From assembly GCF_009834535.1 (NCBI RefSeq), contig NC_045696.1:47556001-47620000 (forward strand): 64,000 nt of DNA, given 5' to 3'. Shown piece after piece: positions 5,560-51,860 of this stretch. Under the pieces are notes generated by a model, which saw only the letters and a list, made by a program, of their open reading frames with translations, was not told the origin of the DNA and made no database searches. Both the position numbers and the translations under genes were made by a program. The stretch comes from Camelus ferus (taxonomy: Eukaryota). Numbering within the stretch: the first letter of the stretch is position 1; the number at the start of each line of letters is the position of its first letter.

Positions 5560-5646
5560 TGTTCTCATTTACGTGGATCTAATGAAACACCAATTTGGTA
5601 AATTCTTCAGGACTCAGGTTTGCTGGCCATTGAGGGCTTATATAAC
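5560..5646 (-). pseudogene. GUCA1C: GUCA1C exon 3 remnant
   Basis: Reads VI*ALNGQQ(-1 nt)LSPEEFTKLVFH*IHVNEN. The acceptor reads ttctttgcGG instead of AG. TAA at 5640-5638, TAG at 5581-5579, GT donor at 5559-5558. Confidence 0.9.
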
Positions 5647-6469
5647 CCGCAAAGAAAAATTAAATCAGAGTTCAACTTTTCCAGAAGCAAATTCATTTTG
5701 TGACATTTCTACCCCAGTGTGACAGAGTTGGGGGAAATGTTTAGCAAAACTGACATATGAAACCTGTTCCAGTTGTTAAAAACAAGATTCTATGTCATTT
5801 CTGGGTAATGAGGCTTGGAAGTTAAGTGAACTGAATACAGTCTGAAGTTTTATTTTGTACAGCACTAAGGGATCTAGTCTACATTCTAAGTAACAAAAGA
5901 TCCTAAGAGCCCACTGAAGAAAAAAAAAATCATAGCGGTCACTGTCATAAGAATTCTGGACCCAGGCAATGGACAGTGTCCTCAACTTTAGAGTGACTGT
6001 CTCTGATCTTATGATGAACATGAAAGGATGTTCTGTAAGCACCTAATGCTTTCTCTCTGGCTTCTGCTGCTGTCACCTTTGATTTTTTGTACCCTCTTGC
6101 AGAGTGATCAACTGGGAAGACAGACACGCATGCCTTGGAAGGACACTGAATTTCTCACACTCTGCCCACATCTTTTCATCATAAAAGCCGTCGGGGGATG
6201 CAGGGAAAATGACATTCCCAGCATTCCTAGAGGGAAGATTTAACCATCCTTCCACCTCACCTACCCCTGCCCCAGGTGATCCAATTAAATAACCCAAATC
6301 TGATGTAGAAATTCATAATAAAAGAGAGGGAGAGAGAATGGACTAGTCATCTGAGAATTTGAACATAACTTTCTTGATTGAATGTGAATGAATCATTAGG
6401 AGAACGGTTGACAAATTATTTCCATTAGAGGCACAGTCAAATACAACTCTCTCTCACTGCTTCCCAAGC

Positions 6470-6506
6470 ATTACTAATCCTGAATCCAGGGATTAATCAT
6501 AATTAA
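6470..6506. promoter_or_regulatory. Homeodomain (CRX-like) motif cluster in GUCA1C intron 2
   Basis: TAATCC 6475-6480, GGATTA 6490-6495 overlapping TAATCA 6494-6499, and TAATTA 6500-6505. Confidence 0.35.
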
Positions 6507-7080
6507 CAGCAACAAAGCACCACTCTTGGCCTTAGAAAGCTGAGATCTCGCACTTAATACTCAGTAACAGTTACAGACATGTAAGCATCCTATTAGATGG
6601 AAATTTTTAAGGTTTCTCAATGTCTTGGCAGAGGCCCCCAAAGCCTAGGAAATTCAGCTGGACATCCAGTGTTCCCACATCCTGAAGAGATACTAGACTA
6701 CATGCATATGTCATAAGAGATTATGAAATTTCTAGAATTTGTCCATCACCCAACTCCAGGCAGTAAGTGAGAGTGAAAGACTGAGTGGAAAGGAGGGAGG
6801 GAGTTGTCAGTGTGCCCTGTATTTTCCCTCTTCTTGTATAAGCAGCATGTGGAGGGATGGGCAAGGGGCTGTGGCTTGTTTCCTTCCTTCCTTCCTCCCT
6901 CCCTCACTGAGTACATCTACTCTTTTCCCTCATTTTGCTGAGCCCTTCTCTGACCCCTGAATGTGAGCAGGAGCAGGTAGGAGAGAAAAGGGGAGGAGGA
7001 GAGCCCTGACTTGGCAGGTGTGGTCATGATTACCTAGTTTCAGAGCTCTGTGGATGGCTGATGTTTAAAGACCACTCTTT

Positions 7081-9605
7081 GATGAACATAGACGCCAAAA
7101 TCCTCACCAATATTTTAGCAAATAGAATCCAACAACACATAAAAACGATTATACATCATGACCAAGTGGGGTTCATCCCAGGGACACAAGGCTGGTTCAA
7201 CATACGCAAATCAATCAGTGTAATACATCACATCAACAAGAGAAAGGACAAAAACCACATGATCATCTCAATCGATGCAGAAAAAGCATTTGATAAAATT
7301 CAACACCCATTTATGGTAAAAACTCTCGCCAAAGTGGGTATAGAGGGAACATATCTCAACATAATAAAAGCTATATATGACAAACCTACAGCCAGCATAG
7401 TACTCAATGGTGAAAAACTCAAAAGCTTCCCACTAAAATCTGGGACAAGACAAGGATGCCCACTATCACCACTCCTATTCAACATAGTCCTGGAAGTCCT
7501 AGCCACAAGAGTCAGGCAAGAGAAAGAAATAAAAGGGATCCAAATTGGAAAAGAAGAGGTAAAAGTGTCATTATATGCTGATGACATGTTACTATATATA
7601 GAAAACCCTAAAAGGTCCACACAAAAGCTACTAGAGCTGATTGAAGAATTCAGCAAGGTAGCAGGTTACAAAATTAACGTTCAAAAATCAGTTGCATTTC
7701 TTTACACTAACGATAAATCAACAGAAGAAGAAAGTAAAGAAACAATCCCCTTTAAAATAGCACCCAAAGTAATAAAATACCTTGGTTAGAATAAATCTAA
7801 CCAAGGAGGTGAAAGAATTATACACAGAAAACTATAAACCATTGATGAAGGAAATTAAAGAAGACTTTAAAAAATGGAAAGATATTCCATGCTCTTGGAT
7901 TGGAAGAATCAATATTGTTAAAATGGTCACACTGCCCAAGGCAATCTACAGATTTAATGCAATCCCTATCCAATTACCCAGGACATATTTCACAGAACTA
8001 GAACAAATCATAATAAAATTCATATGGAACCATCAAAGACCTAGAATTGCCAAAGCATTACTGAAGAGAAAGAAAGAGGCTGGAGGAATAACTCTCCCAG
8101 ACTTCAGACAATACTATAGAGCTACAGTCATCAAGACAGCATGGTATTGGTACCAAAACAGACATATAGACCAATGGAACAGAATAGAGAGCCCAGAAAT
8201 GAACCCACAAACTTTTGGTCAACTCATCTTTGACAAAGGAGGCAAGAATATACATTGGAATAAAGACAGTCTCTTCAGCAAATGGTGTTGGGAAAACTGG
8301 ACAGCAGCATGTAAAACAATGAAGCTAGAACACTCCCTTACACCATATACAAAAATCAACTCAAAATGGGTTAAAGACTTAAACATAAGACAAGATACAA
8401 TAACCTCCTAGAGGAAAACATAGGCAAAACATTATCTGACATACATTTCAAAAATTTTCTCCTAGAAGAAATAAAAGCAAGAATAAACAAATGGGACCTA
8501 ATGAAACTTACAAGCTTCTGCACAGCAAAGGAAACCAGAAATAAAACAAGAAGAAAACCTACGGAATGGGAGAAAATTTTTGCAAGTGAAACTGACAAAG
8601 GCTTGATCTCCAGAATATATAAGCAGCTCATACGACTCAATAAGAAAAAAATAAACAACCCAATCCAAAAATGGGCAGAAGACCTAAACAAGCAATTCTC
8701 CAAGGAAGACATACAAATGATCAAAAAGCACATGAAAAAATGCTCAATATCACTAATTATCAGAGAAATGCAAATCAAAACTACAATGAGGTATCACCTC
8801 ACACCAGTCAGAATGGCCGTCATTCAAAAATCCACAAATGACAAATGCTGGAGAGGCTGTGGAGAAAGGGGAACCCTCCTACACTGCTGGTGAGAATGCA
8901 GTTTGGTGCAGCCACTATGGAAAACAGTGTGGAGATTCCTCAAAAGACTAGGAATAGACTTACCATATGACCCAGGAATCCCACTCCTGGGCTTATATCC
9001 AGAAGGAAATCTACTTCAGGATGACACCTGCACCCCAATGTTCATAGCAGCACTATTTACAATAGCCAAAACATGGAAACAGCCTAAATGTCCATCAACA
9101 GGTGACTGGATAAAGAAGAGGTGGTATATTTATACAATGGAATACTACTCAGCCATAAAAACCGACAACATAATGCCATTTGCAGCAACATGGATGCTCC
9201 TGGAGAATGTCATTCTAAGTGAAGTAAGCCAGAAAGAGAAAGAAAAATACCATATGAGATCGCTCATATGTGGAATCTAAAAAACAAAAACAAAAACAAA
9301 AACAAACAAAAACAAAGTGTTAATAAAGGACAGAAATAGACTCACAGACAGAGAATACAGACTTGTGGTTACCAGGGGGGTGGAGGGTGGGAAGGGATAG
9401 ACTGGGATTTCAAAATTGTAGAATAGACTACACTGTATAGCACAGGGAAATATACACAAAATGTTATGATAACTCACAGAGAAAAAAATGTGACAATAAG
9501 TGTGTATATGTCCATGAATAACTGAAAAATTGTGCTGAACACTGGAATTTGACACAACATTGTAAAATGATTATAAATCAATAAAAAATGTTAAAAAAAA
9601 TAAAT
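7081..9605 (+). mobile_element. Young 5'-truncated LINE-1 (RT and C-terminal part of ORF2, 3'UTR, A-tail)
   Basis: ORFs 7061-9280 encode L1 ORF2 ([14 protein letters not shown], cysteine-rich tail). They are broken by frameshifts near 7785 and 8403 and by TGA at 8891-8893. AATAAA at 9580-9585; perfect TSD AAAGACCACTCTTT at 7067-7080 and 9606-9619. Confidence 0.97.
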
Positions 9606-9734
9606 AAAGACCACTCTTTCTCTGAGCCTCCTACCCACCCACTTTTTTTTTTTTTAATGACTGAGATGCTCCTGAACTCCCTAGTCATGAATCATGACTT
9701 TTGATTCCAGCTGAGCCCTTGAGGCTCCAAGTCT

Positions 9735-9958
9735 GGTTTTGAAACACTTGCACAACTGATATTTTGGGCCAGGCAATTCTTTCTTGTTCTCCAATGTTCT
9801 GTACATTGTAGAATGTTTAGTAACACCCCTGGTCTCCAAACAATAGATAGTGGTAGCTCCACACCCTCCTCCCTCTCCGCTTGCACAACCAAATGTCTCA
9901 GGAATTGGCCAAATGTCCCCTGGGAGAGATCGAGTGCAAAATAGGTGAGAACCTCTCC
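9735..9958. mobile_element. MER20 (hAT-Charlie) DNA transposon
   Basis: attttgggccaggcaattct...cattgtagaatgtttagtaacacccctgg...ggccaaatgtcccctggg...tgagaacc resembles MER20. Confidence 0.75.
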
Positions 9959-11324
9959 AGGTCTGCCTTCATCTTTCTTCTGAGGTCTCCTTCCTTCACC
10001 AAACATGATCCAAGACAACTCTATGCCAGCTGCCTCAACCATGGCCCATAGCTGATTCGTGGAAAAACCCAAGCTTCCCAACAGACGCCAGGAATGCAGA
10101 TACATCCTAAACTTCATCCCTCTGCTCCACTGCATGGTCTGCTTTAGATTTCTCAGGTGGGATTCAAACACTGGAACACGGTACAGTGTTCCCTAAACTG
10201 CACTGTACACCCACATCTCAGTGGTCTCCTTAAAGCCCCATGCTATTGACATGAGGGCTCTCACAAGAAATTATCTCCAATAATCCTTCTCCAAAACCTT
10301 CATCTTGACCATTTCATGCCCTTCAAGTACAATTAAAATGTAACTACTTCCTTTGTAAAACCTGCCTACAATTCAGTCCTTCCTTCAGATCTCTTAATAC
10401 CTGGGCTGAATTCCATTTTAATGCAGCGTTATCAAGTGTTAAGAGAACTTATAAAGTCTGTATTATTCCTTACCCTGCTGGGGTTTTGTTTTGGTTTTCT
10501 TACTTGCCATTACATAGAAAGTATATTTGTAGATCACAGCTTTGTCCATTTGTTACAATATTTCATTCTAATTGTAGTTCTACCCATTGATCTTCCCTTG
10601 CAGTTTTGCTAACATTTATTCCAGGCATTATGTTTGTGACTCAGCTCCTTTCATCTATAAATGAGAATTTGGATCAGATCATTTCTAAGGACATCTGATT
10701 CTGAGTTGCAAATTCAGTGTACTGCACTCATAATGTTAATCTTACTTCATTATTTAGGTACAGTGTCCCACTTAACTTCTTGTGCTCTGGGATCCATTTT
10801 ATCTCATACCATGGTTAAAACTATCCTCACTCCATTGGTAGATGGGTAGAGGGTAATATTTATAAAGGAACTCCTTGAACTTTAGAGATGAAAAGGATCT
10901 GATATCCCTGAGCAATTTATGAGAAATACTTCAGTCAAGCTCCCAGAAAGATTAGCTCCTCAGGTACCTTTATTCTGAGTCCATGTCTCTTGCTATATAA
11001 ACAACCTTGTATTTTAGCTGCTCCCCACAAGACTTTCTGCACCAAGGCAGAGGAAAAAGATAAGTTGTTTTAGAACATCACATTTATTTCATTTTTCATC
11101 TAAATACTGTTAAATTTGTACACCTGAGAGTGGATGGCACATGGAAGCTATGCAGCCATACGCTCAGTAACCAACAGGATAGTGAACCATACATTTCCTC
11201 AGCCATTCCAGACGTGCATCCCGAGAACAGCCGGCCACGTGGAGGACCGTCACAAGCTCCACAGGGAGGAAGACTGAATTAACTACATGATGTCCTGCAA
11301 AGGGTATTTTACTACTTCACTGAC

Positions 11325-11478
11325 CATGAGGATTGTTCAGTAGTTCTCTTTTGTCAGTAGAACCATTTCCATCAACAACATACAGCTTAAAATAACATTT
11401 TAATTTTTACTTCATTTTTTTCCCTTGTGCTACTAGATTTACAGCAGCAATAAACTCTGAAAAGTCAGCAAATCCATT
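11325..11478 (-). pseudogene. GUCA1C: GUCA1C exon 2 remnant (EF2 end to EF3)
   Basis: Reads NGFADFSEFIAAVNLVAQGKKMK*KLKCYFKLYVVDGNGSTDKRELLN. TAA at 11409-11407, no AG at the acceptor (ttccatca|AAT), +1 nt near the 3' end, GTCAGT donor at 11324-11319. Confidence 0.92.
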
Positions 11479-11723
11479 TGATGGAAAGCAAGGTGGAAAG
11501 GGAAATAAATATTTAAGAAGACCAATTATTTTTTATTTGAGAAGTCATCATTCATAAGCAGGACCTTGAGTACAATTTAAACACAACCCACAGTATTTTG
11601 GCATAAAACTTTGCCCTGGCACTTTATTTTAAAAAAAAATACATGGGTAAAGTGTATAGATACAAGTAATTTTAAACAAATATGTGAGTACCTTTTTAGA
11701 GAAAATATCTACTTCTTACGACC

Positions 11724-11749
11724 AAAAAAAAAAAAAAAAAAAAAAAAAA
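11724..11749. repeat. Poly(A) run
   Basis: Directly visible. Confidence 0.9.
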
Positions 11750-14009
11750 GATTCCCACATGCCATGACGGAAGGCTAAGTCCTCACCACTAAGCACCCAA
11801 AAGGGGCTTTTTTCTCCTGGACCCCTTCAGGCTGTGTCCTCTACTCGTGGAGAAGTCCAAATACCAATTTTTTAACTGAAGGGAAATAGATCAGATAGCT
11901 GAATTCTGTACTCTATTTTAGAAAAACTGGTTGAAGTTTTTGGATGGCTATTCTCCAGGATTCCTTTTAACAGCATCATGTTCAGTATGAATCAAAACTG
12001 ATGAGCTTTTTTACAAAGATTTTGTCACATTCAATCTTAGGAAAGGTTGTTGAAGGGTTACAAGTGTAGGTAGGTCCCATCATCCCGTTTGAAAACGATA
12101 AAATATTCTCAGTTGAAACAGAAACAGCCTGGGTCATTCATTCTTAAGAATCATACAGGTCAAACCTTGCTCAGCCGAAAGCTCAACTGTATTAAAAAGG
12201 CGGCCAGCTCTGGGGAGCGGGTGACCTGCCCCCTGCCATTCTCCCACGTGGCTTGGCTGCCAGTAGCAGCATATTCAGCCCTTTGGAAAACACACCATTT
12301 CCTGCACTCTCTTTAAAATATTTAGGATGTCAAGTCCTATTCACAAAACAGGATGTGACATAAGTACACCTTTCCCTTGAAGATAAAGGGCTTTAGGCTT
12401 ATAGGTCTAAAGTGATAAGTGTTTGATTTGAGTCAAACTTAAGCTTTGGAGTCTAGTTCAACCGAGTTTATAACAAAAACAACTGAGGAACTATCTGCAG
12501 TTCTGGATGTAGAGCAAAGCCTGTTTGGCTGGTTAATGGCTTGGTTTTGGTTTTGGTTTTGGTTTTTTTTGAAGACAACTGCAGTCTCTCAGATACTGGA
12601 AGCCAGTGTGTAAATCTTATAGCATTGCCCTCATAATGTATCATACATTAAAATTTTCTACAATGTGGATAGTCAGAAATAAAGTGCGAAAATATTTAAA
12701 AATCATTTCACTACCTTTGGGTATTAGATTTTTGTTTCTTACAACAGGAATCTTTACTCTATCAATAATTTATGTGTTATAAGAGATAAGACTTCTGCTA
12801 ACAGATGAGAGTCTGGTTGAAGGCTCCTGAAGGAAGTTTTCTCCATCTTTTTTTCCTACTGCTCACAACCACTCCACCTTCTTAATTCCTAGTACAGCTA
12901 TGGCTGAGGTGAGGAAATACATTATTATAGAGTTGAAGTTTAAGATGATGTCAGGATATCATATCTCCAGATTTGGTGGGACACAACCACTATTTCTCAG
13001 AAACGGGACTGGCAGGTGTGGAGGATGTAAGCTGGGTGGAACGGTATCTAACCACGGGTGCATCTGCTCCGAGGTCTTACTCCTGCGTCTCCAGGGCTGA
13101 CCAAACAAGACAATCACTTCATGTGTGGTTATTGTGCATACTTACCAAAAAGTCACAAAAACATCCTCTCTGCGAAGACTGAGCTGGCTTGTTGGAAACT
13201 TGATACTCCAGTGCATCCGTTAAACTGTATATTTCATGATGACTCGTTTCACATTATGAGTCCCACTTCAGTGGTCACAGTTTTCAGTGCCACTTGCATG
13301 ATGAATGGCAATAGGCTAGATTAAGCAATGTTTTCCTTAGAATATTTGGTATTTTATAATGAGGCACAGTGGGTGGGTGGTCCTAACACCTTCCAATCCA
13401 GGCTCTGAAAGCTCTGGGCAAACCCCACCAGGAGATGAGCATAAATATTTTCATTGTGTGGTTTAAAAATGGACAACCTGGCTACAGCCAAAGTTCGATT
13501 ATGGATGAGGAAATCTTTCTACTTGGACAAATGCAACCTCTTTCAAAAACTCCTGCAAGCAAAACATTTCCTGTTTTCACTGCAGCATCCTGGTATGCAG
13601 TCAGCAAATTAATCCTTACAGTCCTCAGCCAACTCTTCTTTCCAATTATCGTTCTATCAAGATTCTGTAGAAATTTGCATTGGCAAAAACAACTCTGGCA
13701 AAGGTAATTTAATAGCTTGTGTTGGAGAGGGTTTTAAAGTAAACGCTTATTCTGTAAAACAGAAGAAAACAATTCTTGTCTTCAGTTAATCTATAAGTTT
13801 CAAGGATGGGAGGGGGAGATTGAAGAGCCACAGAGAAGGTGAGCCATCTGCAAATGTGACACGAAGCATGCAATAGAGAATGTCCAAGACTTTTCTCTGG
13901 GGTGACCCAAGGGAACACCGTTTATACTTGTGTGGTTGAATTACAGGAGCCCCCGTGGCACGTAGAACTGTCCGGAGAAGTCTGACACTTCTTGGCCTTG
14001 AGCCAGAGT

Positions 14010-14172
14010 GGAGTTCATAAACTCTGCATCAGAATCACGAGGGGACAATGAAATATGTGGCTTCCTAGACCTCCTCCCACCCCAACAAAGCATCAAAACT
14101 ACCTGGGATGGGGTTCAAGAGTTGGCATTTTAATAAATGAGTCTCATGTATCCTAAGATTTGGGAACCACAG
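14010..14172. mobile_element. MER5-type DNA transposon remnant
   Basis: tgcatcagaatcac...gcattttaataa...aagatttgggaaccac. Confidence 0.6.
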
Positions 14173-15269
14173 ACCTAAGCTGTCTCTCTAATCCAGGTCT
14201 CTGTAGGTGATATTAACATCCAACCATCTCTCCAAGTGGCTTTTGTGATTGTGGCTTACTCTCATTTGAATTTATATAACCTTATTAAGACTAATTAGGA
14301 AAATTATGACCCACATGGTTCAGTCTCAGAATAATGACACAGTCCTACGACTACAACCCAGCCATCAAAAATTAATTTCCAAGTAACAGCAAGGCTTTAC
14401 TTTCATTTCTGGAACAAACATGAGTTGCAAGAAATTTATGGGTTTCTTCACAACACCCCCTTCCTCTCCCGTCTGCTCCTCTGCACACACCCTGCTGCTC
14501 AGACTTCAGCAATCTCCACCGCCAAGCTCCATGAGAACGTTCCATTCTTTTATCCTGCCAATCCTCCTCATAATTCTGCCCCACAAAGTCCTTAAAAATG
14601 AATTTGGCAATGGCAGGATCCTCCTTTGAGGTTGGAGGGAGGAAAACAGGGCACAGAAAAAGCCAGTCCAATGAGCCTCAGGAGGAGGGTGTGGGAGCCT
14701 GTGTACAAAAATAATTTTAATCCCAACGCATTTATAGGTTTATGTATCATGTTCTTCGGATGGAGTAGATTATAGGGGAGAGATAAGTGGGGACCAAGAC
14801 ATGGAGGAATGACAGTTTCTCAGGCTCCTAAGGGAGTTTGGCCCCATTCATATGTTAAGTCATTTCATAGTTGGTGGTTCAAATGAGAAAGAAAAAATTT
14901 ACAGAGACTTCAATTTTACGCTTTCTCATGGTCTCTAAAATGTACAGTAACTAAGACATACTTTTTACAATTACAAAGCATAAGAAGATTTTTAAAAGCT
15001 AGTTCTTCCCTACTAAAGAGATGAAACTTGAGAAGTCTAATAAAAAAATAAGGGAAACGGTCATGTGCTTCTGCACAACAGAAAAGCCACAGGTGGAAAT
15101 TATGGTCTCCAAGTGATGCCATAAATCAGTTGATTTTAAAGATCTGATCAACTTGAAATGAAGTTAGAAAGTTAAACTCTAAAGCTGATATTCATATGAA
15201 AATTATTGTTTTATTATTACCAAGTATGACTATTAATATATGTATTTTTAAAATGGGGAAAAGCCCATG

Positions 15270-15460
15270 TCCCATTGTTCTGGTCACTTTCCATGCATTC
15301 TCTCTCGTTCTAACTACAGCCTTACAGGCTGCCTTATTACTCCTATTTTTACAGAAGAGAAAGCCGTTTTTCAGAGAGGTTAAATCAGCTAATTCAAGCA
15401 GCAAAACGGGGGTGTGGGTGGGTTCAGGACTGAAACCCAGTCAGCCTGTTTTAAGACTTT
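15270..15460 (-). mobile_element. MIR SINE
   Basis: cctatttttacagaagagaaagccg...cagagaggttaaatc matches the MIR core. Confidence 0.65.
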
Positions 15461-18160
15461 TTCTTCCTTCCACCCAACAGTGCCCTGAGTTCCTTACAAC
15501 TGAATTCTCTTTCTGGAAGAGGTGTCTGCAGGCTGACTAGATGGGACACATTCAAGGCAGCATGTTGCTGTGGATTTCTGCGAGTGAACTACCGGGTAAC
15601 ACATCGTGTAAGGCGGGGTAGGTAACTCGCTGTGTCTGAAGATGCCGCACGTGAAGCTCGTGTTTCCTTCATACCCAGGGCCGCCCAAGGTGAAGCTGGC
15701 CAGGTGCTCCCAGCGGCTCTGCATCCGGGAGGCTTACGAGCCCCCCAAGCCCATGCCCCGCTGCACCGCCCACCATACCATCCTGCTCAGCAGGACCTCT
15801 TGCCCTCCCCTGCTGTCATGTCTGATGAATATTCCTTCTTCTATCTGTTTTGGAATCCTGGGCCCCTGCCTCATGGTTTGGCCTCCAGCACCCCGTACAC
15901 AGCAGTGTCTCCCTGCTTACAGTTTCCCGTGGGAAACTTCCCCCGTGGCCCCTCCAGGATCGTTGATCAGCTGAACCAGCTATTGTGCCGGTGCTCCTTC
16001 AGCTGACCCTGTCCTCAGTCTCACCCATGCCTGTGGCTAGAAACCGAGAGCCTTCCTCCACTGTGCAGCCGGTCCTTCCTCGGCTCAGCGGTTCCCCTCT
16101 CCAGAGCCTCACCCCTGCGTTACAGCCCTGATTCCGCTCTTCTCCACACCCTATAAAGTCTTTGGCTAAAATCTCGCTGTAGAGATCACCTGACCTGCTC
16201 AATATGGCCCTGCCATCACTCTCCGTTTGCCTGAGTGACCTTGAGAAACAGATACTGGAATGTTCTCTCAGTATATGTCAGAGACATCTGCTTTGGTGTT
16301 TTGTCCCAATGATAGAACCACGAATTGATGAACCGGATAATCTCACTAGGGAAACTTGGCTTCATTTCATTGATATAAATCATAGAATTTCAGCTCTTGA
16401 GACAGTGCTTCATTCTGCAGATGAGAAAGGGACTGGATGAGTAATAAGTCATGATTGCAGTCATGACGCAGTGACGACTGTTGGTGTTGATGTGACACTT
16501 GCTATTCATACAGGGCCAGGCATCCTGCTTTACAGGTGAGCTCATTTAACCCCAACAAGGCCCTGCTTGGTGTTCACAAGAAGCACAGCACCTGGGTTCT
16601 GTAACACTAAGATCATGGAAATAAAAATCACTATGACAACTAGTTAGCCCCATTTATTCCAGTGGACCCTCTTATTCAGGAAAACAATCCCAATCCAACA
16701 AGAATCCAAACTTTAGCTCAGATTAAAACTGCTTCCTCCCACAGCGTTAACTTACAGCGACTTTTCACGGAATCACTCTCTGAAAAATTCATGAATCATC
16801 ACGGCCCCTAACCTGAAGACATTTAGATATTTTCACTCGTTTACATGCGACACTTTTCAGTGACATTTTTCCAGCTGTGGCAGGTCAGTAGCAACATAGG
16901 AATTGAAAGTTCTTGCCTGAAAATGGTTACTCAGATGGTCGGAAGCAAGGAAACCCAGAGAGTGAGGATAAACACGTTATGTGGTTGATCAACAGTTGTC
17001 AGGGACATGTAATTTGCATTTTAGGAACTGAAAGAAAGTAGGCAACGTAAGGGCTGTATTATATCAAATACATGTGAATACTTTTTAAATACTTCTGTGA
17101 ATTTTTTAAATCTGTAAGGGAAACGTGATGTTCAGCATTTAAGACCTAACCCATTTTCACCTACTGACACTTATATTAACAGCAAACATGGTTTCCTCAG
17201 CCGTGGAATTGCTGGAACGCCCTGAGGAGAGGCTGGCTGGCCTCTGTCAGATGAGAAATCTGCTGCTGGCTTGGTAAATTGGTTCTATAATGTGATCTTT
17301 ATGCATATCAGACACGGTTGTTTTTGACTTGGCCATGACTGTACAAAACTCAAGGGTTCCGGGACAGAGGGCATCTCATAATGTTTACCAAGCAAGCTCC
17401 TGGTTATTAGTAGGTTTCCTGGATACCAGGGAGCCCTGACCACCTGCCCCCAGAATGCAGCCAGCTTAGCGTGCCCGGCCCGCTGTGAGTTAGAAGCCAG
17501 TCTCATGTGCATCTGGGGAAGGCAGGATAGTTGTCCAAGTCTGCACACTTCGGAACGAGCTAGTTACAGAATACCCAGCAGGAACTAGAGCAATGGCAGC
17601 CTCTTGCAGGGAAATTCCTCAGGTAGCCAATGTGGGTTTCTTCTCATAAAGCACCTGTCTCCTTAAACCGATATTGCAGCAGATAAAATACAATCCAGTC
17701 TCACACCCTAATTCAGCCAGCCTGCCTCCTATGCTTACATTATTTCCCACAGAAGAGCCTGGATCCTCATTCTCTAATGACTGGGAGAGGTGCCCAGGGG
17801 ATGGGGACAATGGCAGGTGAGACAGTGGGATGTATGTACCTATATTCCTGGCTTCTGCACGGGGCTGGGGGTATTGTCGTTCTTTGACTATGACTAAAAG
17901 AACAGTCAGAGGAACTGCTTCTGAATGAATAGTTTGGGACAGAGAATCCCCTTTTCATACGCATCCATGGTTCACAGCTCCTTGGTGGTGGCAGAAATGA
18001 GCCTAGCACAGTTTTCTGCTATTTGGACCGTGGTCTTTCTAGGATAGCAGGCACTGGCTGCACATTTGAACCACCAGACAGCTTAAAACTAACATTGTTT
18101 TGATTCAGTTGGACTGAGGGGGAGGCCCAGGCACTGTATTTCTAATTCCCCAGGTGCTTT

Positions 18161-18777
18161 TGTTACAGAGCCAAACCTGGGTCTGCTCAGCTGCGTGCAG
18201 CAAGGCCAGTCTACGGATACTGGCTTGTGGTGAGGGAATGAAGTGCAGCCTTTCCTGCAGGGCCAAGCAGGCAGTGTGGGCAGCTAACGCAAGACCTAAA
18301 CTCTCAGCTGGCTTTCAGGGAAAGGTTTTTAAAGACAGGGTGAGGGAGACGGTTTCAGGGTGTATGACCAGGCTCGTGGACATTCTTTCTATTGGTTGGT
18401 GGTGAGGTAACTGGGAATCAACATTATCAACCTTCTGGTTCCAACCGATCTGGGATCTATGTGCTCGTGGTCAGCATGAAGTTAGCTTCCTCCACCTGGT
18501 GGGGGTTTCAGTATCTGCAAAACAGCTCAAAGCTATGGCTCGGAATATGATCAATAGCCCTTGAAAAGGTCCTGGACTTTGTTTAATGGCTAAATTATTT
18601 TTTTGTCTTGCTTGACTGTTTTCCTTTGTTTCTGCATTTTCTTACTTCTGATTAAATCTGCTCTTTGGAACTTGAGGAAGAAGCCTAGGAGGCTAAAGTT
18701 TTCTGGAAACAGGAGGCAGGCAGAGTACACGGGGTGGTCTGTCCCAGGAAGGCCCCATAGGGTCCTGCTCAGTTACA
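18161..18777 (-). mobile_element. ERV1-type solo LTR inserted into a MER5A-like element
   Basis: Begins TGTTAC and ends GTTACA, with an imperfect 4-bp TSD (cttt/cttc). The flanks 18040-18160 and 18778-18810 rejoin as MER5-like ...ccccaggtgcttctaacatgtagccagaattgagaaccac. Confidence 0.8.
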
Positions 18778-20479: not shown

Positions 20480-20960
20480 ATTACTTTAGCCCTGCACGTC
20501 GAGAGTTAGAGAAATGTTGCTGTGTTCAAATAAGTTAAGTTTCCTTTAGAAAGTTCCCATCCCGTGGTCCTGGGTTAGTTATGGCCGTTACTTGTAGGTA
20601 AATTCACTTTTAGCCTAGAACTCCTTAGAATAAGCAGAGAGAAGAGAGATTGAGTAAAAACTGCTAACAACTTGAATTTTTGCAGCTTTGTGATTCTGCC
20701 TACGTGAGCAAGAACAAAGAATGTGATGTTTCCTTGAAGGCCAGGTGGCTCCAAGAAGTCTGCAAGCCTGCCTTCACCCTTTCACTTCCCCCTTTTTCTT
20801 CAGCATAAGAGAAGCCTTAACTCCACCCCGAATTAAGACAGGACACCAGCCTGCCATCTTCTTGGTCTGCTAGCTTTCCAAATTAAGTTACTACTTCTCA
20901 CCCTAATGTCTTGTCTCTTGACTTATAGGCCTGTCTCATAGGTGAGCTTGGACTCTAAGT
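20480..20960 (+). mobile_element. Old ERV1-class LTR remnant (MER34/MER67-like)
   Basis: ccagcctgccatcttcttggtctgctagctttccaaattaag...gtcttgtctcttgacttataggcctgtc resembles the R/U5 region of such LTRs; boundaries approximate. Confidence 0.5.
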
Positions 20961-21199
20961 TTTGAGTTCAAAACCCATGAATTCAGAGAAATTATTTTAC
21001 CCTCCTTATAACACCTCAGTATCTTACAGGAGGCAAAGCTTCTGACAAGCCTCCTTCCATTTTCCCCCCACCATTCCCTTCCGTACCAGTAGTCAGGCAT
21101 CTATTACCCCATTCCTGCCCTCCTGCACGTAGGTATCTGACAAAAGACTACTCTTAGAGAACTTCAGATTCAGTTTGAGCTGATGATGGTGCTCTGTTT

Positions 21200-21555
21200 G
21201 GAGAGCACCTGCAACAGAACCAGATCTGTTTTGCCCTAAACACAGCAAGCCAGGATGCTGAGACGCCAGGATTTTGAGGCAGAGTAAGTTACTCGCAGCA
21301 AGAGAGACAAATAAAGAGACAGAAGGACAGAACAACTAAACTTCCCCCCACCGAAGGCCAGGGGCCCGGGTATTTATGGGATGAGGAATGAAGCAGCTGG
21401 GCTTTTGCGGCATGGGGGAGCGTGGGGAAAGGAGATTGGAAAAAGGTGCCCTAATCTTTGTTCTGCGCAGGCGTAATTGGGCTACAGACCCCCTACAGTT
21501 CAAAAGGTCACCCAGCACGCATGCCCAGTTGGAGGGTGGGTGCTCCTATCTGGCC
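21200..21555 (-). mobile_element. ERV1-class LTR fragment
   Basis: gcaagccaggatgctgagacgccagg...gggtatttatgggatg...tgcgcaggcg is an antisense LTR-like pattern. Confidence 0.5.
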
Positions 21556-21712
21556 TTTTTTTATTGGAGAGTCAGTTTACAATGTTGTGTCAATTTCTGT
21601 GAGAATGCTTCAGTCATACATGAACAGACATATATTTATTTTCATATTCTTTTTCACCATAAGTTACTGCAAGATATTGAATTTAGTTCCCTGTGCTATG
21701 GTCCTATCTAGT
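21555..21712 (-). mobile_element. Short L1 3' end, related to the 3'UTR of the L1 at 7081-9605
   Basis: tttacaatgttgtgtcaatttct...gttccctgtgctat is the reverse complement of the motifs at 9435-9590. Confidence 0.85.
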
Positions 21713-22254
21713 CTTAATCAGCTCAGCTTCAACTAGAGGCAGCTGACTCCAGCTCCTGGACAACAACTCTGGCAAACAGTTTATTGTTTAGGCCACGTGC
21801 TGCTTGGAGAACATGCAAGTCTTAAAACGACCTTGATTAGTGAAGGCGGGTGAAATGGATTTAACCCACAGTTTCACACCCAAATGCCTAGGTGTGGCCC
21901 CGAGGGCTGAACGCTTACCTTCACACCTGTTACAGCAGCAAGGCTGTGGACCAGGAGCCAGAGGTGCTGAGGGCTGGCCTTCTGCTCTGAGATTCTCCTG
22001 CATCTGGTGCTGTGAGCACCTCATTTCTCAGCCATGGTGTAAGAGTAAATGTAGTCCTGACAACAGACTGGTTATCTGTATGGAGCAAAAGATACAGTTG
22101 AGGTGCGTGGAGTGTGTGCTCCCTGGTTACACTCTATACTTCAGCAGTGACCCTCTGCCTTAGTTAGGTCCCCATTGACCCTTCTCTCTCCCACCTTGTA
22201 CTTTAATTTGAGCTGTTCTCTTAATTGAAATACTGAACTATTTTGTTAAAGGTG

Positions 22255-22495
22255 GCGTACCATAGCAGTTTAGACTGCAGCCCTTGGAGTCAGACTGCCG
22301 GCATTCCAATTCTGCTCTGTAGTTTTAAGCAAGTCACTTAATCTCTGTGCCTCAGTGGCCTCGTCTATAAAATGGGAATGATAAAAATCATATCTACTCT
22401 TATATTATTGTTGACGATTCTATAAGATAATAAGCAGAAAGTGCTTAACACAGTGACAGGCACAGAAATGTTCATTAAACATTAGCTTTTATTCA
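22255..22495 (+). mobile_element. MIR SINE
   Basis: ttggagtcagactgcc...gcaagtcacttaatctctgtgcctcagt...tataaaatggg...gtgcttaacacagtg. Confidence 0.8.
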
Positions 22496-23671
22496 TAATA
22501 GTTCAAGTTCTTCACTTTTTCAACACCTCAACATGCCTCAACTTCTCCAGAAAACCTTTTCTAACCAAATCTACAACTTAGTTTTCGTTGCATCTTTTGG
22601 CCCCAGTAAATGTACCCTTGAATAGCACTATACTCCTGCTATAGTTTTTGATGTTATACTTTATATATTTTATATATTTTCTTAAGGAATTTGATCTCAA
22701 CATAACTTTCATCAGCTAGACTGTAAACTCTTTGGGCGAACAGAAAATCATGTCTTCTACCTACCTACTCACCCCCATCCCCACACCTTTCCAAAATCTG
22801 AGTGTGGTTTTTCTGCTATTACCTGCCCTGCTGGGATGGGATTGAAGAATTCCCTAGTCCATCCATCCAGCTGGCCTGTCTAGGAACAGGCTGGACCATT
22901 AGTCACAATACTGGGCAGAATTTTAAAAGCAGCCCTGTAATACCCAAGACCCATCTGGAACCTTGAAACTAGAGAGTTAGTACAATGCTTTGCCCTCTCT
23001 CAATCTCTGATTCTTTATTTACTAACTTTAATTTTTTGAGGCTGCATTTGTCACCCCACTAGATTGTGAACTCCTTTGAGGACAGGTAGATAAAAATTCC
23101 ATAGACTGGGGAAGTGTGGACTAGGGAAGGAAAAGAGGGTTGCAGGACACTGGGGGAGGGGGAGGGAATGGGCCCTGCTCTGTGAGAGTCGAGAATAGTC
23201 AGAGGGTTGGGCAAGAGAAGCCACTGGCGATGGCAGAGGTAAGAGCAGAAGCACCTGTGATTGACTGGAGGAAGCTCACCAGGTTCCCCTGAATCTGGCG
23301 TAGCTTGGGAGGAAAGGCTGTAAGGAGTCTCCGGTCAGACAATCCTGAGCCAGCCTAAGAGACTTTCATACCTAAGAGTATAAACAGAGTGACCAGGAGG
23401 CCCCACCCTGCGGAGACAGCAGCATTCTGAGTGAAGCAGGAGATGAGGAGAGTGTCTCAGCACCTACTAGTGTGGACAGACGCTCCCCTGATCTCTTAAC
23501 AATACCTTGAGTTCTAGGTATCAACACCCACGTGGTTTATATGCAGCCCTGGAAAGTGGAGGGAGAAATCTCCTTGGTAAAATGGGGACTCAAAAAACAA
23601 ATTAATTTTATTATGGAAAACTAAAGTACATTTCTTAAATGCCTGAGTATGCAAGCTGAAATTCTTACCAG

Positions 23672-23672
<1 letters not shown>

Positions 23673-23702
<30 letters not shown>
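23673..23702. repeat. (CA)n microsatellite
   Basis: Directly visible. Confidence 0.95.
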
Positions 23703-23706
<4 letters not shown>

Positions 23707-23802
23707 CACTTTAAAACTCCCCCTGAGAGAATCATTCCGTTTGGGCACTAAGCTATAACTTGGAAGACACAGTGGCCCTCCTTAGTATAAATATGGGAGA
23801 AT

Positions 23803-23960
23803 GGGGTGGGTGTAGCTCAGTGGTAGAGCTCGTACTTAGCATGCAGGAGGTCCTGGGTTCAATCCCCAGTACCTCCATTAAATAAATAAATAAATAAATA
23901 AATAAGCCTAATTACCACCCCCAAAAAGCCCACAACAAATAAAAATTATAAATAAATAAA
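23803..23960 (+). mobile_element. tRNA-Ala-derived SINE (camelid Vic-1-like)
   Basis: ggtgtagctcagtggtagagc (A box), ttagcatg anticodon arm and gggttcaatcccc (B box), followed by a (TAAA)n tail. Confidence 0.88.
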
Positions 23961-25301
23961 TGGGGAAAAGGTGAAGGAGAGAGAGAGGAACGGAAAGGAA
24001 AGAAGTGCATATACAGAAGAGAGGGCCCTAGAGTTGTCACTGCCCTTGTTATTTTATTTAATGGTTCAGTAGACATTTGTTCAGCATCTACTTCATGCCG
24101 CCATGCTGGGTGTCTGGTCTGGGGAAGCGTGCGGGATTTGGCGGGGACGCTTCATCAGTTTTACTCCTCAAATTTCTGCACATTGTTCCCTGAGGAAGAA
24201 TTCATGCACCACTTGCATTTCAAAAGAGAAAGGACATGTGAAGAAGAGCAAACTAAAGGTGGAGTGTGCAGAAAGGGGTGCGGCTGGAGCATGAAGGGTA
24301 CGGGACGAACAGCAGTGCTAGGTGCTCCTTCGTCGCCAGGCTCTGCCCGGACTTCAGCAGAGCAGGAGTGAGCTCCACGTCATGCACTCTGTATGCACAG
24401 AACCCAGTGCAGCGGGTTCACGCCTAGCATAGGAAGAAGTTTCCAGGGAACTGGGCGTTTTGCATCTGTCTCCAGGTGAAGCGTGTGTAGGCTCAGGTGA
24501 GAATAGTGCAGCCCACGGCCATTTTCACTGCCTTTTAGGAACCAGTTGCCAGCAACAAGAGCTACACACTCACAGTGCTTCTTGCTTTTGGAGTATCTGT
24601 GCTGGCCCAGACCCAGCTCCAGCGCTCACCACTTTTCCTCAGCTTCTGCTCTGCAGTGAGTCATTAGGCAATGGCTCCCTTTCGCCAGCAAATCAGTGGC
24701 AGAAACGTGGGGGGAGGAGGTGGCCCTGGTCAGTCCCTGGAGCTCACCTAATGGCAAATCCCACCGTCCACCCTGGGTGGGTGTCGTACTGACCACGAGA
24801 ACCGCAAGCTTTGATCGTGTTGTACTTTGCACGGAGACTTCATGTTTTGAGGAGGTTACTCGCTACCAGGTTTAGACCCTCAGCTTCCAAGTCGGGAGGG
24901 TTTCCGTAGTGGAATGGACAATTCCTAGCTGCAGAAACGAAGAAATCTGTTCCCTGAACAGAGACGGACCTTACTTTTGAGGAGAGCAGTTTTCATCACT
25001 GACCTTACCTATGAAGTTTAGCTAATATCTTTTATCTTTATTTCTTTTTTGTGTTATAAAATTTTCAAAAATCAGTTTTTTACTTTTCATCATGTACATC
25101 ATTCATGCACATATCTAAAACGCAAAGTCTTATACTTTAAAACTGAACTTTTTGGGTTTTTTTTCTAACTTGTTACTTACATGCATGTAATTGAGCTGCT
25201 TATTCTGCTTTTGGCTTTATTTATCAGTTTTAGACTTTATCTGTTTACTTCCCGTAATAGCAAATGACAAGTATTTAACTCTGTGACCCTCGTACACATC
25301 C

Positions 25302-25670
25302 CAGTGGTGGGCTGGAGCTTATTCTGACTGCTGGTATGAGCTGATTGTTAAATTTTCAGAAATTTTGCAAGCCAAATATTAAATGATTGGTAGCTTGGTG
25401 GGTAGGGTATAGCTCAGTGGTAGAGTGCAGGTTTAGCATGCACAAGGTCCTGGGTTCAATCCCCAGTATCGCCATTAAAAAATAATAATAATAAGTAAAA
25501 ATTAAAAAAAAAGAATGGGTAAATACACTGAATCAGAAAAAAATTAAAAATAACTGGTAGCTTGAAATTGGCCACAGTGGGAGTATTTACACCATGGGAA
25601 TCAGCAAATGTTACCAGGGCTATTTTCCCCTCAGAAAACTAGTTGTTAAACATTTCCCAGCATGCCACTG
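25302..25670. mobile_element. MER63-like hAT DNA transposon interrupted by a SINE
   Basis: Terminal inverted repeats cagtggtgggctgg ... ccagcatgccactg; internal gtgggagtatttacacc. Confidence 0.75.
25397..25547 (+). mobile_element. tRNA-Ala-derived SINE (Vic-1-like)
   Basis: A/B boxes and A-rich tail; TSD aaatgattggtagctt (25381-25396) / aaataactggtagctt (25548-25563). Confidence 0.88.
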
Positions 25671-25849
25671 TTCTTCCTCCATACCCTCACAAATGCAGAT
25701 TAATCTAAAAGTCAAAAGTTTCATTTTAATGACTCCGGTAAATTTTGTTCTCTTCATAGCCCATTGGTAGTCCTGAATTATTGACTTCCTTATTTTACAT
25801 GGCGTTAATAATTGCCTCATTGTACTGGCACCTCCTGAAATTAATTGGA

Positions 25850-26522
25850 CAATCCACAAAAAGGGAGACAGCCAGTAATTACATGCTTACGAAGTATTCT
25901 TGCCAAACAAATGAATCTGATCTATTTAAGCTTCTTCAGCTGAATACCAGTTTACTGATAATATGAAGAATAGAAAGCAAGTTAGATGACACAAGAAAGC
26001 AACCAACTAAATCTAGAACGCAGGATATCCTACGGGACCAATGACTCACTTTTCTTAGTAAATCAATAACATAAATGGAGTGGGGAAGTGGGTAAGAAAC
26101 TATTACAGAAAAAACAGACTTAACGTCATAACCCCAATTTCCATGTATGGATCCTGCTTGGATCCGAATTCAGATTAAGGAACAATAAAAAAAAGTATGC
26201 TTGAGAGCAGGGACATTTGCCCATAGACCAGGTATTAGACGACATTAGGGGTTACTGTCACCTTGTCCTGTCTGATAATGGCATAGAACTTACCTTTTAA
26301 AAAGTGTCCTTACTGGTATTAGATGAATAATAAAGTATTTGCAGAGGAAATAGTACATTTGATTGTTTTTTTTCTTTTTAAAAAATCCTGGGAAAATGTA
26401 GGAGGACAGATAAAACAAAGTGACAAAACTTCAGTAACTGTTGAAGATGGATGATGGTCTATAAGAGTTCATTAGATATGCCACTCTGAATATGTGTGAA
26501 ATTTTCATAGTAAAAAATTTTA
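25850..26522 (+). mobile_element. Ancient L1 3'UTR (L1MC/MD/ME class)
   Basis: tatggatcctgcttggatcc...gtattagacgacatt...gttcattaga...gtgtgaaattttcatagtaaaaa. Confidence 0.6.
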
Positions 26523-27269
26523 ATCGCTTCATTTTAAACCTCCTTTGTGTTTTCTTTGTGCTTAGCCTTGTCAGTCTTTTCAAATGTACCAGCAGATTAA
26601 GTATCAATTAATGAATTAATACTGTTTTTGAAATCCTTAAACATCCAACCCATCAGTGTCATTTTTCAGGGTTTCCTCCGCAAGTCCCCTTCTTCCTTTT
26701 CAGTGGGGACTAGCTGCACATTGGGCTTTCTGCACAGCTGCTGGTGTGCACTTCCCTTCTCCGTGACCCTGGACTGCCCAGGCCTCTTTTCCTGTGTCAG
26801 ATTCACTCTCTCCCTCTTTGTTGATAGATTCCCTCATTTTGCTGGAGCACCTGCTCCAGTAGCTTCCTAAGAAAAATTAAGCATGACGTACATTTTTCAG
26901 TCCTTGAATGTCTCCTCCCACATTGATTTGGCTTGACACTTTTCCCCTCAGAATTTTGGAGGCTTTTCACCATCGATTTCTAGCCTCCGGTGAAGGTGTT
27001 ATGAAGCTCAATGCTGTTTTGATTTCCATTCTTTCCCCTTTTCTGAAGATTACAGAACTCAGCGTATGCTGTCGGTTGATCTCTTTCTACTTGTTACTGT
27101 ACTAGACGTGCCTGGCACAATAACAAATACTTGTTATTGTGAAATGTGTGTCTGATAGGTTGGGGAAATTTTTCTGGTTTGTTTTGTTATCTTACATTTT
27201 CTCTGAGCTCTGTTCCTATGACTCTTACTCTTAGGATATTAGAACTATTAATCCCAATGTAGGATTTTA

Positions 27270-27580
27270 TTTGGAAAAATGCTGTGTAAAACAAAACAAG
27301 TCAGGGAAGGTTGAAGGAGCTGCCAGACCAGGATGCTAAGCTGACCCAGGTGAGCAGAGCGAGAGAAGGGAGTCCTTGAGCCAAAGCCAGCTGACAGAGG
27401 AGTCCCCTGTGTCAATAAGGGTTGACCTTATTTCTGCTGCACTCGATCACCAGCTGTAATCTAAACGTAGGCACAGACTCAGCTGAAGTGCAGTGATGGC
27501 TTTCAAAGCGATGCACCTGGGGCCCTGGTCAATGACCTTCCCTAGAGCCTGAGGCGCCAACATCATGGCCACTACTGTCA
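27270..27580. mobile_element. MLT1-class (MaLR) LTR remnant
   Basis: gggagtccttgagccaaagccagctgacagaggagtcccc is a typical old MLT1 motif. Confidence 0.55.
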
Positions 27581-28933
27581 AGCAGGTGCTATTATCATTG
27601 TAGGTTGACTGGGTCAGTCTATGTGCTATGCCTGGAACACTCAGAAAGCATTAGGGATTATTACTGAGTGCCAAGGAGAAACCTGCAAGGGTGTGTGATT
27701 GGCCAAAGAAACTTATAAATTTTATGCTCTGAATTTCAGGATCTATTTGCTTTTACTTTAAGCACTATTCTAATAAGCTTGGTTAACTTGAGTACAAGCC
27801 AAAGCCAGTTAAGAATGGCAGAGTAAAAAGAGACTGGAAACTTATTAGTGTTGTAACAATCAGAAAGCTGGGAAAGGCGTGTTTGACAGCAGGGACAGAG
27901 ACAGAAAAACAACAAAAACCAAAATATAACAAAAGCTCGTATTTGCAGAATGTTTAACATTTGGAAACATAGCCCCAGCAACTTCAATCGACATAGGCGC
28001 TTCTTGGGTTTTCAGAAATGTAACAACCAGTGTTCACAATAACGACTCTGAGAGCAAGAAAATGTCTCACCAGCACTCTGAGGAAGCAGGAAAGTAAGAA
28101 ATGTGGTTTAGACAGATTTCCACACAGAATAAACTGCAGAGGAGCTCCACAGAAAGACTGAACCCTCCAGGATTCTGGACAGCTGGTAGTTTTATTGATG
28201 TAATTAAATATATGGCTTTTCTGTTTTCCTGTGCATAATTGCATAGCACTTCTTCCTGTCACTTGATAATGAGCAACCCTTACCCTTCTCATTTTATGAC
28301 CCGATTTTATGTTGAGATCCCCACACCTTTCATGGCATCATCTCCGCCTGGGTTCACTTGCTTCCTAAGCAAACATAAAATCTCTCTGATAAATCATGAA
28401 TAGCAGTAGAATTTCCAAGTCATTTAAAGTAAGCTCCTGCGGGGCTCGGCCATCCCATGACTGTCACCGAGGGGATTCTCTCTCCAGTGGCGCACACACC
28501 CTAGGCTGCCTGTCTGGATGCCGTCTGCCCTGCTTCCTCAACAGCCGCTTCACTTACACAGCACTTCCTGTTTCCACCCGGCCCTCCTCCCTGTGTTCCT
28601 GCTCTTGTATGTGAGCCCCTGACGTGCACGGTGCTCTCACAAATCCTGGTCAACAACAGAACTGCAGGCCTAGGATGTGACATCAACACCTTTGGAGAAT
28701 AAAGAGCTTGACAACAGCTGATTTTCCAACCTTCAGGGGTACCGTCGGAGCCTGAGAAGCCACCGTCTGGAGCCTCAGGCGTCCACTATGAAATCAGGTT
28801 GCTCACAGCAGGCACAGTGGGATGGAAGCAGCCACACAAGTGAAACACAGAGAAAGACACACGGAGAGAAAGAGAGCTGAGAGATACGTATAGGGGCAGA
28901 TACAGACAACATGCCAACGTGCACACAGGATCC

Positions 28934-29276
28934 TGCCTTAGCCCAGGCTGCTGTAACACAAATACCATAGACTGGGAGGTTTAAACAGAAATGTGTTTCT
29001 CACAGTCCTTCAGGCTGGGAAGTCCAAGGTCAAGGCACAAGCAGATTCAGTGTCTGGTGAGAGCCCACTTCCTGGTTCACAGATGATGGTCTTCTGTGTT
29101 CTCACACAAGGGGCAAGAGAGGTCTCTGGGGCCTCTTTATAAGGGCCCTGATCTCGTTCAGGAAGGCTCTGCCGTCCTGACCCAATCACCTTCCAAAGAC
29201 CCCCACCTCCAAATGTGTCACACTGGGGTTTGGATTTCAACATACGAATTTGAAGGGGGACATTCAGTCCACAGCA
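28934..29276. mobile_element. MLT1A-like MaLR solo LTR
   Basis: tgccttagcccaggctgctgtaacacaaataccatagactggg...ggggacattcagtccacagca; TG...CA ends; near-TSD gatcc/gatcg. Confidence 0.88.
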
Positions 29277-30565
29277 GATCGCGAACATACTTAAGAACAA
29301 AAGCAGGATCCGCCTCATTTCCCCACTGATTTGTAAGCTCCTTGGGGGCAGAGCTCTGTTTGCCTGCATCTACACTTAATAAAATCTGGGAGGAGGAATG
29401 AGGAGGAACATACTGTCACGCTAAGCAGGCAGTGTTTAACTCATGTTGATAACAATGAACAAAGTACAATATTGTCCTAAAAGAAATCCTTCCCTGACAT
29501 TCCTACAAGGATTAATATAGCTGTTAATTTGCACAGGTTTAATTCTCTCCAGTTCCTGGCTGTTACCTTCTTTTAAGTCATTTGTTTTGGTTTTGGTTTT
29601 GGTTTCGGCTTTAGAAAAGGGATCAAAAGGTTATGTTAGATTCCATACATCTTAATGGACAGCCAGTGGTTTTAAGGGCATTGAATTAATGATCCCTTCT
29701 TTCTCTTGTATTATCACGCACAGCCTTCTAAAGTCATCTGCTCTTCCGTGGGGAGTATTCCCCTTCCCATTTGTCCTGGATGGCAGCAGCACATTGTGCA
29801 ATATACAGATCTACAGGTAAAACAACTGGGATCCCCAAGTAAAGCAGGCAGAGAGAACCTGAGTCCAGTATTTTGGATTGTTACTTTTTGGTCTTAGTTT
29901 TTCTATTCCATATTTTTTCTCATTTTTGTATTTTTTCAAGACAAAATTAAATGTGCTGCAACGCCTCAGGAATGAGTAAATTCAAACAACAGTTGAGTAA
30001 CAAGCCTCAGAAATGAAAATTTATCTGAATTTAAAATTAAATTGTTTTGTTTTTCCACAAACTAAATTGGTCAGATATGAAAAAAAAAAAAAAAGATTAT
30101 GAAGCATTCTAACTTTTGATTTGAGTACGAACAATGTGTTGGCTAATTTGTATTGATTTTATCTGCCAATCTAGATGCAATCACACTTTTAAAAGCAGAT
30201 TCCTGTAATTTGCTTTTCTATAAAATGTCACCAATGCATTAAATACTTTGAAAACAGTCTCTGTAAATCAGTCTGCACTTATTAGATTTGTTTAAACGAT
30301 AGCATTAGAATTCCATGCCGAGAGTTAATTTGGTTTTAAAATAACTCCCTACATGCAGAACATTTCCAAGGGCGGAGAGGCTAGTTCCCAATTATTTTCA
30401 TGCCAGCAGTGCTAAATGTGTTTAATGACTCACTTACCTACCAGCTGTGGGTTCTCTGAACACCTCCCCATTCAGTGGAACACACACATTTTACCTCAGG
30501 CTATTTTATATTGAAAAATGGGGGAAATGCAGAACCATAGCCAAATGATAAGTTAAAGTTCTTAC

Positions 30566-30768
30566 CTTGTTTCTGTCAAAGGTATTATAGACTTGATCAA
30601 CTTGTTGACTGGCCTTTTGATTCAGATCTTGCAGACCCAAGAGTGTCTTAAATTCATGCAGTGTTTGCAGACCAGGTGGCTATTCCATCATAAATCCTCC
30701 ATACCACACATAGGTCTCTTATGCAGGAATTGCTGTCTGACCACTGCTAGAGATTCGCTATTCCCCAT
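30566..30768 (-). pseudogene. GUCA1C: GUCA1C exon 1 coding remnant
   Basis: ATG GGG AAT AGC GAA TCT (MGNSES) starts at 30768 and a GTAAG donor lies at 30565-30561. Length is 203 nt, not a multiple of 3, implying a 1-nt deletion near codon 8. In the GCAP3 frame there is TAA at 30721-30719 and TAG at 30682-30680. Confidence 0.93.
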
Positions 30769-34252: not shown

Positions 34253-34896
34253 GCTTTTGTCCAAAGCTGCAGACATTTCCAAATAAAAGTTATCAAGGAA
34301 AATGAAAAACACAGTTCTCACATTATGCTGAGAAGATTTACTCTTTTACTATAACTCAATAATAAAATTATAAACCATATTTGAAAGTTTTGGGGGGATT
34401 TATATTATGTGGTTTACTGAGTATTGGCTGCAATAGAGAAAGAGTATAATGTCTTTCTTTTACAACTCAAGTTCCAAGAGGAGGTGATTCTTTGTATATA
34501 GTTTGTATATAGTTTTTAAAAATCACTGTTTTCCAGATTTATACAATCCTTTTAATGAAAACAAAATTTAGGCCTAAACGACATTTCCATCTTTCTTAGT
34601 AGCTCACGTGGGAATTAGAGAACTCTGGAAATGGTTTCTCAAAGAAAAGGAAGAGTCAGGGAACGGACTGGGAAATATAAAAACCAAATCAGTCTTTATT
34701 TCTAAATACAACTTTCTTAGTGTTAAACAAGATGAACTTTACAATAACAAGTACAGAGAAGTTTTTTTTTTAAAGAATCTTCCTTTTTTTTTCTTATTAG
34801 CATTTAAAAAAATGAGATGTCCTCTCTGACTTTTAAGTGTAAGAAGTACTTTCCTTTTTTTCTGAAGGAAGACTATGTCCTGAATCTGTAGTCCCT

Positions 34897-51760: not shown

Positions 51761-51762
<2 letters not shown>

Positions 51763-51805
<43 letters not shown>

Positions 51806-51860
51806 TGTGCATTACAAAATGTGTGTGTGTATACATGTGTACATATGTGTGTGTGTACAC

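Follow-up and report, generated by a model that had tools for sequence, protein, structure and literature searches.

The DNA analysed here (the window) comprises 64,000 nucleotides of Camelus ferus contig NC_045696.1 (positions 47,556,001 to 47,620,000, assembly GCF_009834535.1) and carries, on its minus strand, three decayed exons of GUCA1C next to the 3' part of MORC1. GCAP3, the product of GUCA1C, is a calcium sensor that stimulates retinal guanylyl cyclase as the calcium level of illuminated cones drops. With good confidence, GUCA1C in Camelus is regarded as an old, non-processed (unitary-type) pseudogene, on which selection lapsed and lesions gathered on the camelid branch; this loss has already been published. 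The features of the locus, in gene order, are as follows.

30566..30768, minus strand: GUCA1C pseudo-exon 1, codons 1–68; 203 nt against 204 nt; donor GT kept
11479..30565, minus strand: intron 1, 19,087 nt; 3' end without AG
11325..11478, minus strand: GUCA1C pseudo-exon 2, codons 69–118; 154 nt against 150 nt; donor GT kept
5647..11324, minus strand: intron 2, 5,678 nt; GG in place of AG at the 3' end; contains an L1 fragment
5560..5646, minus strand: GUCA1C pseudo-exon 3, codons 119–148; 87 nt against 88 nt; donor GT kept

Identity and decay of the GUCA1C exons

Intact mammalian GCAP3 sequences were used as tblastn queries and matched three minus-strand blocks in gene order (30748–30566, 11478–11335 and 5617–5549). 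With query P0014, bit scores of 100, 66 and 34 were obtained; as these exceed the maximum of 26.6 found in 30 shuffled windows, the matches are not due to chance. Exon 1 was compared with solved structures and matched human GCAP3 (PDB 2GGZ) at E 9e-22, GCAP1 at 3e-9 and GCAP2 at 2e-4, and nearly all named protein matches in the database search were GCAP3/GUCA1C. The codon register of 2GGZ is followed over residues 1–147. The locus thus resembles GCAP3 more than it does GCAP1 or GCAP2, and MORC1 adjoins it on the same strand; in human, GUCA1C lies directly downstream of MORC1 in the same orientation. Exon sizes fit those of intact GUCA1C (204/150/88/170 nt, with long introns; Gesemann & Neuhauss 2023, PMC10061024, Supplementary Table S1) once indels are counted. 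A processed pseudogene was ruled out by the introns of 19 and 5.7 kb between the exons, the GT donors and the synteny with MORC1, which bears out the statement of the original prediction that the exons are intron-separated and do not form a retrocopy. Pfam searches with the broken exons 1 and 2 singly returned no family, as expected for short decayed pieces. For exon 4, no credible match was found in the 64-kb window with five queries (best E 0.24); since, in addition, PMC10061024 Table S1 gives 6.4–8.6 kb for intron 3 of cetaceans, hippo and perissodactyls, exon 4 is probably situated outside the window, past its left edge. A decayed exon 4 is present in P0001, a predicted protein of a close relative.

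Ten disabling lesions were counted over the three exons, namely five stops, three frameshifts and two acceptors without AG, exactly the figures given in the original prediction. Exon 1 carries a −1 frameshift near 30744, K17* (TAA at 30721) and Y30* (TAG at 30682). Exon 2 is preceded by CA instead of AG (11480–11479) and carries Q91* (TAA at 11409) and one additional base at 11334, together with an in-frame gain of 3 bases in a run of seven A at 11421, a change which the original prediction had not listed. In exon 3, the acceptor reads GG (5648–5647), followed by Q121* (TAA at 5640), a −1 frameshift near 5616 and K141* (TAG at 5581). Q121* and the additional base at 11334 lie outside the local alignment and were placed from the printed sequence and the codon register. 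At the level of predicted translation it was shown that no GCAP3 protein can be made from the camel locus, because the frame opened by the exon 1 ATG ends in a stop after 26 residues, and starts further downstream face additional stops and the lost acceptors. Substitutions comprise D69N, I72A, W95C, D101V and I108T in exon 2 and D143H and D147N in exon 3. Even a product made by read-through would have altered loop residues in EF-hand 2 (D69N, I72A), EF-hand 3 (D101V, I108T) and EF-hand 4 (D143H, D147N), the calcium-ligand and loop positions of EF-hands 2–4 being assigned from the established layout of this motif.

Constraint was assessed at 86 sites which are invariant in 17 intact orthologs: 14 of them are changed or stopped in the camel, against 0–3 per intact ortholog (leave-one-out). 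GCAP3/MORC1 branch-length ratios, determined on a fixed seven-taxon tree with blue whale MORC1 and right whale GCAP3 representing the whale, were 2.65 for the camel, 2.15 for the whale and 0.3–1.1 for five intact terminal branches. Both measures indicate that camel GUCA1C has been released from purifying selection. The camel missense load relative to a laurasiatherian consensus amounts to approximately 0.11 per site, corresponding to a neutral decay time of 24–80 million years at an assumed 1.5–3 × 10^-9 per year, or about 40–50 million years at 2.2 × 10^-9; rates and branch ages in this clock are our assumptions.

The original prediction had implied that the camelid loss was new, which does not hold: according to Supplementary Table S1 of PMC10061024, the gene is broken in both Camelus dromedarius and Vicugna pacos. 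The loss is therefore already known and forms part of a loss that spans the order and has recurred often. The dromedary row resembles the present locus, with one frameshift (written as +1 in the convention of that table) and two stops in exon 1 and no open frame. For alpaca, two stops are given in exon 1, and exon 2 is listed with 153 nt, no splice consensus and two stops. The span of exons 1–2 measures 19,444 nt here, 19,438 nt in dromedary and 19,948 nt in alpaca, and intron 1 measures 19,087 nt here against 19,591 nt in alpaca (PMC10061024 Table S1). The claim of old damage in the original prediction is supported; as alpaca shares the loss, it predates the camel–llama split. The published camelid rows stop at exon 2 and give no positions; the present analysis adds, in a small way, the lesions of exon 3 and the finding that baleen whales do not share the camel lesions (see below). 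The camelid loss is easily overlooked, perhaps because the main text of PMC10061024 names neither camel nor alpaca.

One artiodactyl loss or several

All 22 artiodactyl rows of PMC10061024 Table S1 (pig, dromedary, alpaca, 8 ruminants, hippo and 10 cetaceans) show a lesion or the entry 'no open reading frame', and the gene is listed as intact in horse, rhino and tapir. Whether the artiodactyl losses are shared or separate is a question not raised in the available portions of that paper. The camel exons were compared at the protein level with four baleen-whale models (P0192, P0109, P0194 and P0193; accessions include Eubalaena glacialis XP_061048707.1, Balaenoptera musculus XP_036705585.1 and Eschrichtius robustus XP_068401651.1). 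A low-quality flag is attached to two of these models, and models of that kind can hide frameshifts. None of the eight camel coding lesions is present in the four models, each of the five stop sites and three frameshift sites being read through. The Eubalaena glacialis (right whale) model P0192, which is not flagged, contains no stop or frameshift in exons 1–3. Camel and right whale share no derived change at the 86 invariant sites; five differences from the consensus are common to both, but none falls on an invariant site, and two look ancestral. Had the artiodactyl stem been fully neutral (27–32% of the path, judged by MORC1), the probability of finding none of 14–18 damaging events on it would be 0.001–0.011. 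The camelid coding lesions therefore arose on the camelid branch, after the split from other artiodactyls, as shown against baleen whales only.

On these grounds, parallel loss is placed ahead of a single shared loss, though not firmly. It is held somewhat more probable than its opposite that GUCA1C was open and under selection at the first artiodactyl splits and that camelids, pigs, ruminants, hippos and whales each lost it on their own. Of the 'independent loss' put forward in the original prediction, the independence from baleen whales stands at the level of coding lesions (0/8), while its camelid-specific framing is not supported, as every tabulated artiodactyl is broken. Neither PMC10061024, in the portions available, nor the literature search results were found to state a parallel artiodactyl loss. 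If true, one cone gene would have been lost in parallel across an order of mostly day-active animals with two-colour vision, which would suggest that a change further upstream, common to the order and affecting for instance the cone expression of GCAP1 or GCAP3, made the gene dispensable.

Several points weigh against parallel loss or the decay on which it builds. The lesions are those of the assembled sequence; the comparison within the artiodactyls covers whales, at the level of proteins, half of them from low-quality models. The ratio of shared to camel-only changes is 3:22 in GCAP3 and 17:45 in MORC1, which is no significant difference (Fisher p 0.16), and the artiodactyl stem has a GCAP3/MORC1 ratio of 1.2–1.4, slightly over the intact range. 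With all 22 tabulated artiodactyls broken, parsimony suggests a common cause (PMC10061024 Table S1). The rival reading is one loss in the ancestor of living artiodactyls just before the camelid split, through silencing or relaxed selection and not through a coding lesion, with each lineage acquiring its own lesions later; the camel locus would then still be a pseudogene, but not an independent loss. Such an event would explain why 22/22 artiodactyls are broken and 3/3 perissodactyls intact (PMC10061024 Table S1), it agrees with the heavy decay of the right-whale protein (10 of the 86 invariant sites changed, 6 residues deleted in EF-hand 2, ratio 2.15), and a silencing event immediately ahead of the split would not show up as a common coding lesion. 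The upper part of the 24–80 million year range, which depends on the assumed rate, reaches the artiodactyl root; dating by missense load was discarded as an arbiter, this range being too wide to choose between single and parallel loss. Against the single event stand the lack of any coding lesion or invariant-site change common to camel and whale, the open frame of P0192 through exons 1–3, and the ratio of lesions to missense changes of 8:24 in the camel and 0:19 in the right whale (Fisher p 0.02, a value biased by the choice of the whale with the best preservation). A single ancestral loss is accordingly judged unlikely. The ending 'MKW', common to the whale models and P0001, was examined as a candidate common lesion and rejected, since the frame and length of the tail vary among intact orthologs. 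A search of metagenome contigs for GUCA1C DNA of other artiodactyls gave 239 pattern matches, none of which was confirmed.

Two further explanations dispute the decay itself. It is highly improbable that the lesions are assembly errors, or that an intact duplicate lies elsewhere, and that camels still make GCAP3. Two indel-type changes do lie in or next to short A runs, but the five substitution stops and the two acceptor changes are not homopolymer errors, and matching lesions were published for two other camelid assemblies (PMC10061024 Table S1). They are also implied by P0001, which is near-identical, not identical, to the window and in which the residue at each of the five stop positions is dropped or replaced, and the adjacent MORC1 exons match RefSeq Camelus proteins. 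No protein named as a camelid GCAP3 was found among 106 and 99 database matches, which speaks against a duplicate. Between 96 and 97% of sampled words from 21100–31000 were found in fourteen contig sets of 5 studies (10 runs of 4 studies without a possible source study); this coverage shows that the region is common, not each lesion. Least probable of all is that the locus still functions as a non-coding RNA or a regulatory element. The ATG and all three donors are kept, three matches to the CRX-like motif TAATC occur in the 532 upstream bases, and RNA-labelled runs contain part of the intron 1 words, which may reflect DNA carry-over. The loss of both acceptors and the decay of invariant sites as if neutral argue against such a function, and no spliced transcript was shown. 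RNA-labelled runs with 17–56% of intron 1 words were not accepted as evidence of expression. As a separate observation, two RNA-Seq runs labelled reproductive-system metagenome contain 39–56% of sampled words from 21100–31000, a mostly intronic region; host DNA carry-over and MORC1 read-through are candidate readings of these matches.

MORC1 and repeats in the window

Two larger features were annotated besides GUCA1C.

34833..59959, minus strand (same strand as GUCA1C): 3' part of MORC1 in seven exons, with 4.07 kb between its end and the GUCA1C ATG
About 7060–9320, plus strand (antisense to GUCA1C): 5'-truncated L1 fragment in GUCA1C intron 2; boundaries approximate

At residues which differ between the RefSeq MORC1 models of Camelus and Vicugna, the window agrees with Camelus at 7/7 (by eye). 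The MORC1 exons thereby place the sequence in Camelus, in line with the earlier assignment to a probable camelid; the models of dromedary, Bactrian camel and wild camel are identical over the window exons, so that the three species are indistinguishable there. The last MORC1 exon (34989–34833, minus strand) contains an extra T in the run 34906–34903, which leads to a stop at 34899; the protein tail, little conserved, thereby loses about 21 residues. In RefSeq, the models of dromedary, wild camel, Bactrian camel and alpaca have the tail restored and carry a low-quality flag, and a GenBank model of Camelus ferus has the truncated end found in the window. It looks as if this truncation were camelid-wide and tolerated. 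The remaining six MORC1 exons in the window are open and have GT/AG ends. No publication joining MORC1, camel and frameshift was found.

The L1 fragment contains long open reverse-transcriptase pieces (Pfam RVT_1, E 1.8e-43) and an A-rich tail; a target-site duplication was looked for and none was found. Without this insertion, intron 2 would measure about 3.4 kb, against 4.2–4.8 kb in most relatives (PMC10061024 Table S1). Short dispersed repeats, about 79–93% alike, are located at 23802–23902, 25399–25499, 42017–42088 and 45336–45426 and probably represent a SINE family.

Probable dispensability of GCAP3 and comparison with known losses

GCAP3 is expressed in cones of human and zebrafish, and the isoform that predominates in mammalian cones is GCAP1 (PMC6170504). 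Human GCAP3 is a much less efficient activator of GC1 than GCAP1, and the human variant D101H is inactive and does not regulate the cyclase (PMC8948881). A human GUCA1C nonsense allele is present in three homozygotes in gnomAD (PMC7998521). Dromedary and alpaca retain GUCA1A and GUCA1B with normal exon sizes (PMC10061024). Most likely, the gene was lost through redundancy: GCAP1 and GCAP2 would do the job of GCAP3, selection on GUCA1C would have lapsed, and point mutations and one-base indels would then have accumulated by drift on the camelid branch. Nothing in the present data points to adaptive loss or poor vision. Dispensability is not universal, since for frogs a preprint reports no strong relaxation (10.1101/2025.10.31.685797).

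The value of the camel locus is modest, as one more well-mapped case of a gene lost many times in mammals. It supports the view that, of the three GCAPs, GCAP3 is the one most easily dispensed with, a view that matters for the judgement of human GUCA1C null variants, and it makes camelids, like cattle and pigs, unusable as GCAP3 models. Whether the artiodactyl-wide loss was one event or several is a mildly valuable question.

Outside the artiodactyls, GUCA1C is also broken in hyenas, several moles, many bats and pinnipeds (PMC10061024), and losses were described in pangolins, with that of the mouse cited there (PMC5052048). The losses of pangolins, mouse, hyenas, moles, bats, pinnipeds, cetaceans and ruminants resemble that of the camel, in that a four-exon gene decayed in place through stops, frameshifts and splice loss. 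For pangolins a reading as poor vision was offered (PMC5052048), which is not obviously applicable to camels, as these are diurnal and have kept GUCA1A and GUCA1B. The baleen-whale models share with the camel an accelerated protein change and the derived residues N54S, E90K and K111R, all at variable sites; unlike the camel, they have their own 6-residue deletion in the loop of EF-hand 2 and many radical changes, and some carry a long C-terminal extension; the frame of the Eubalaena glacialis model, extended in this way, has stayed open. Human GCAP3 differs from the camel locus in being intact and expressed in cones (PMC6170504).

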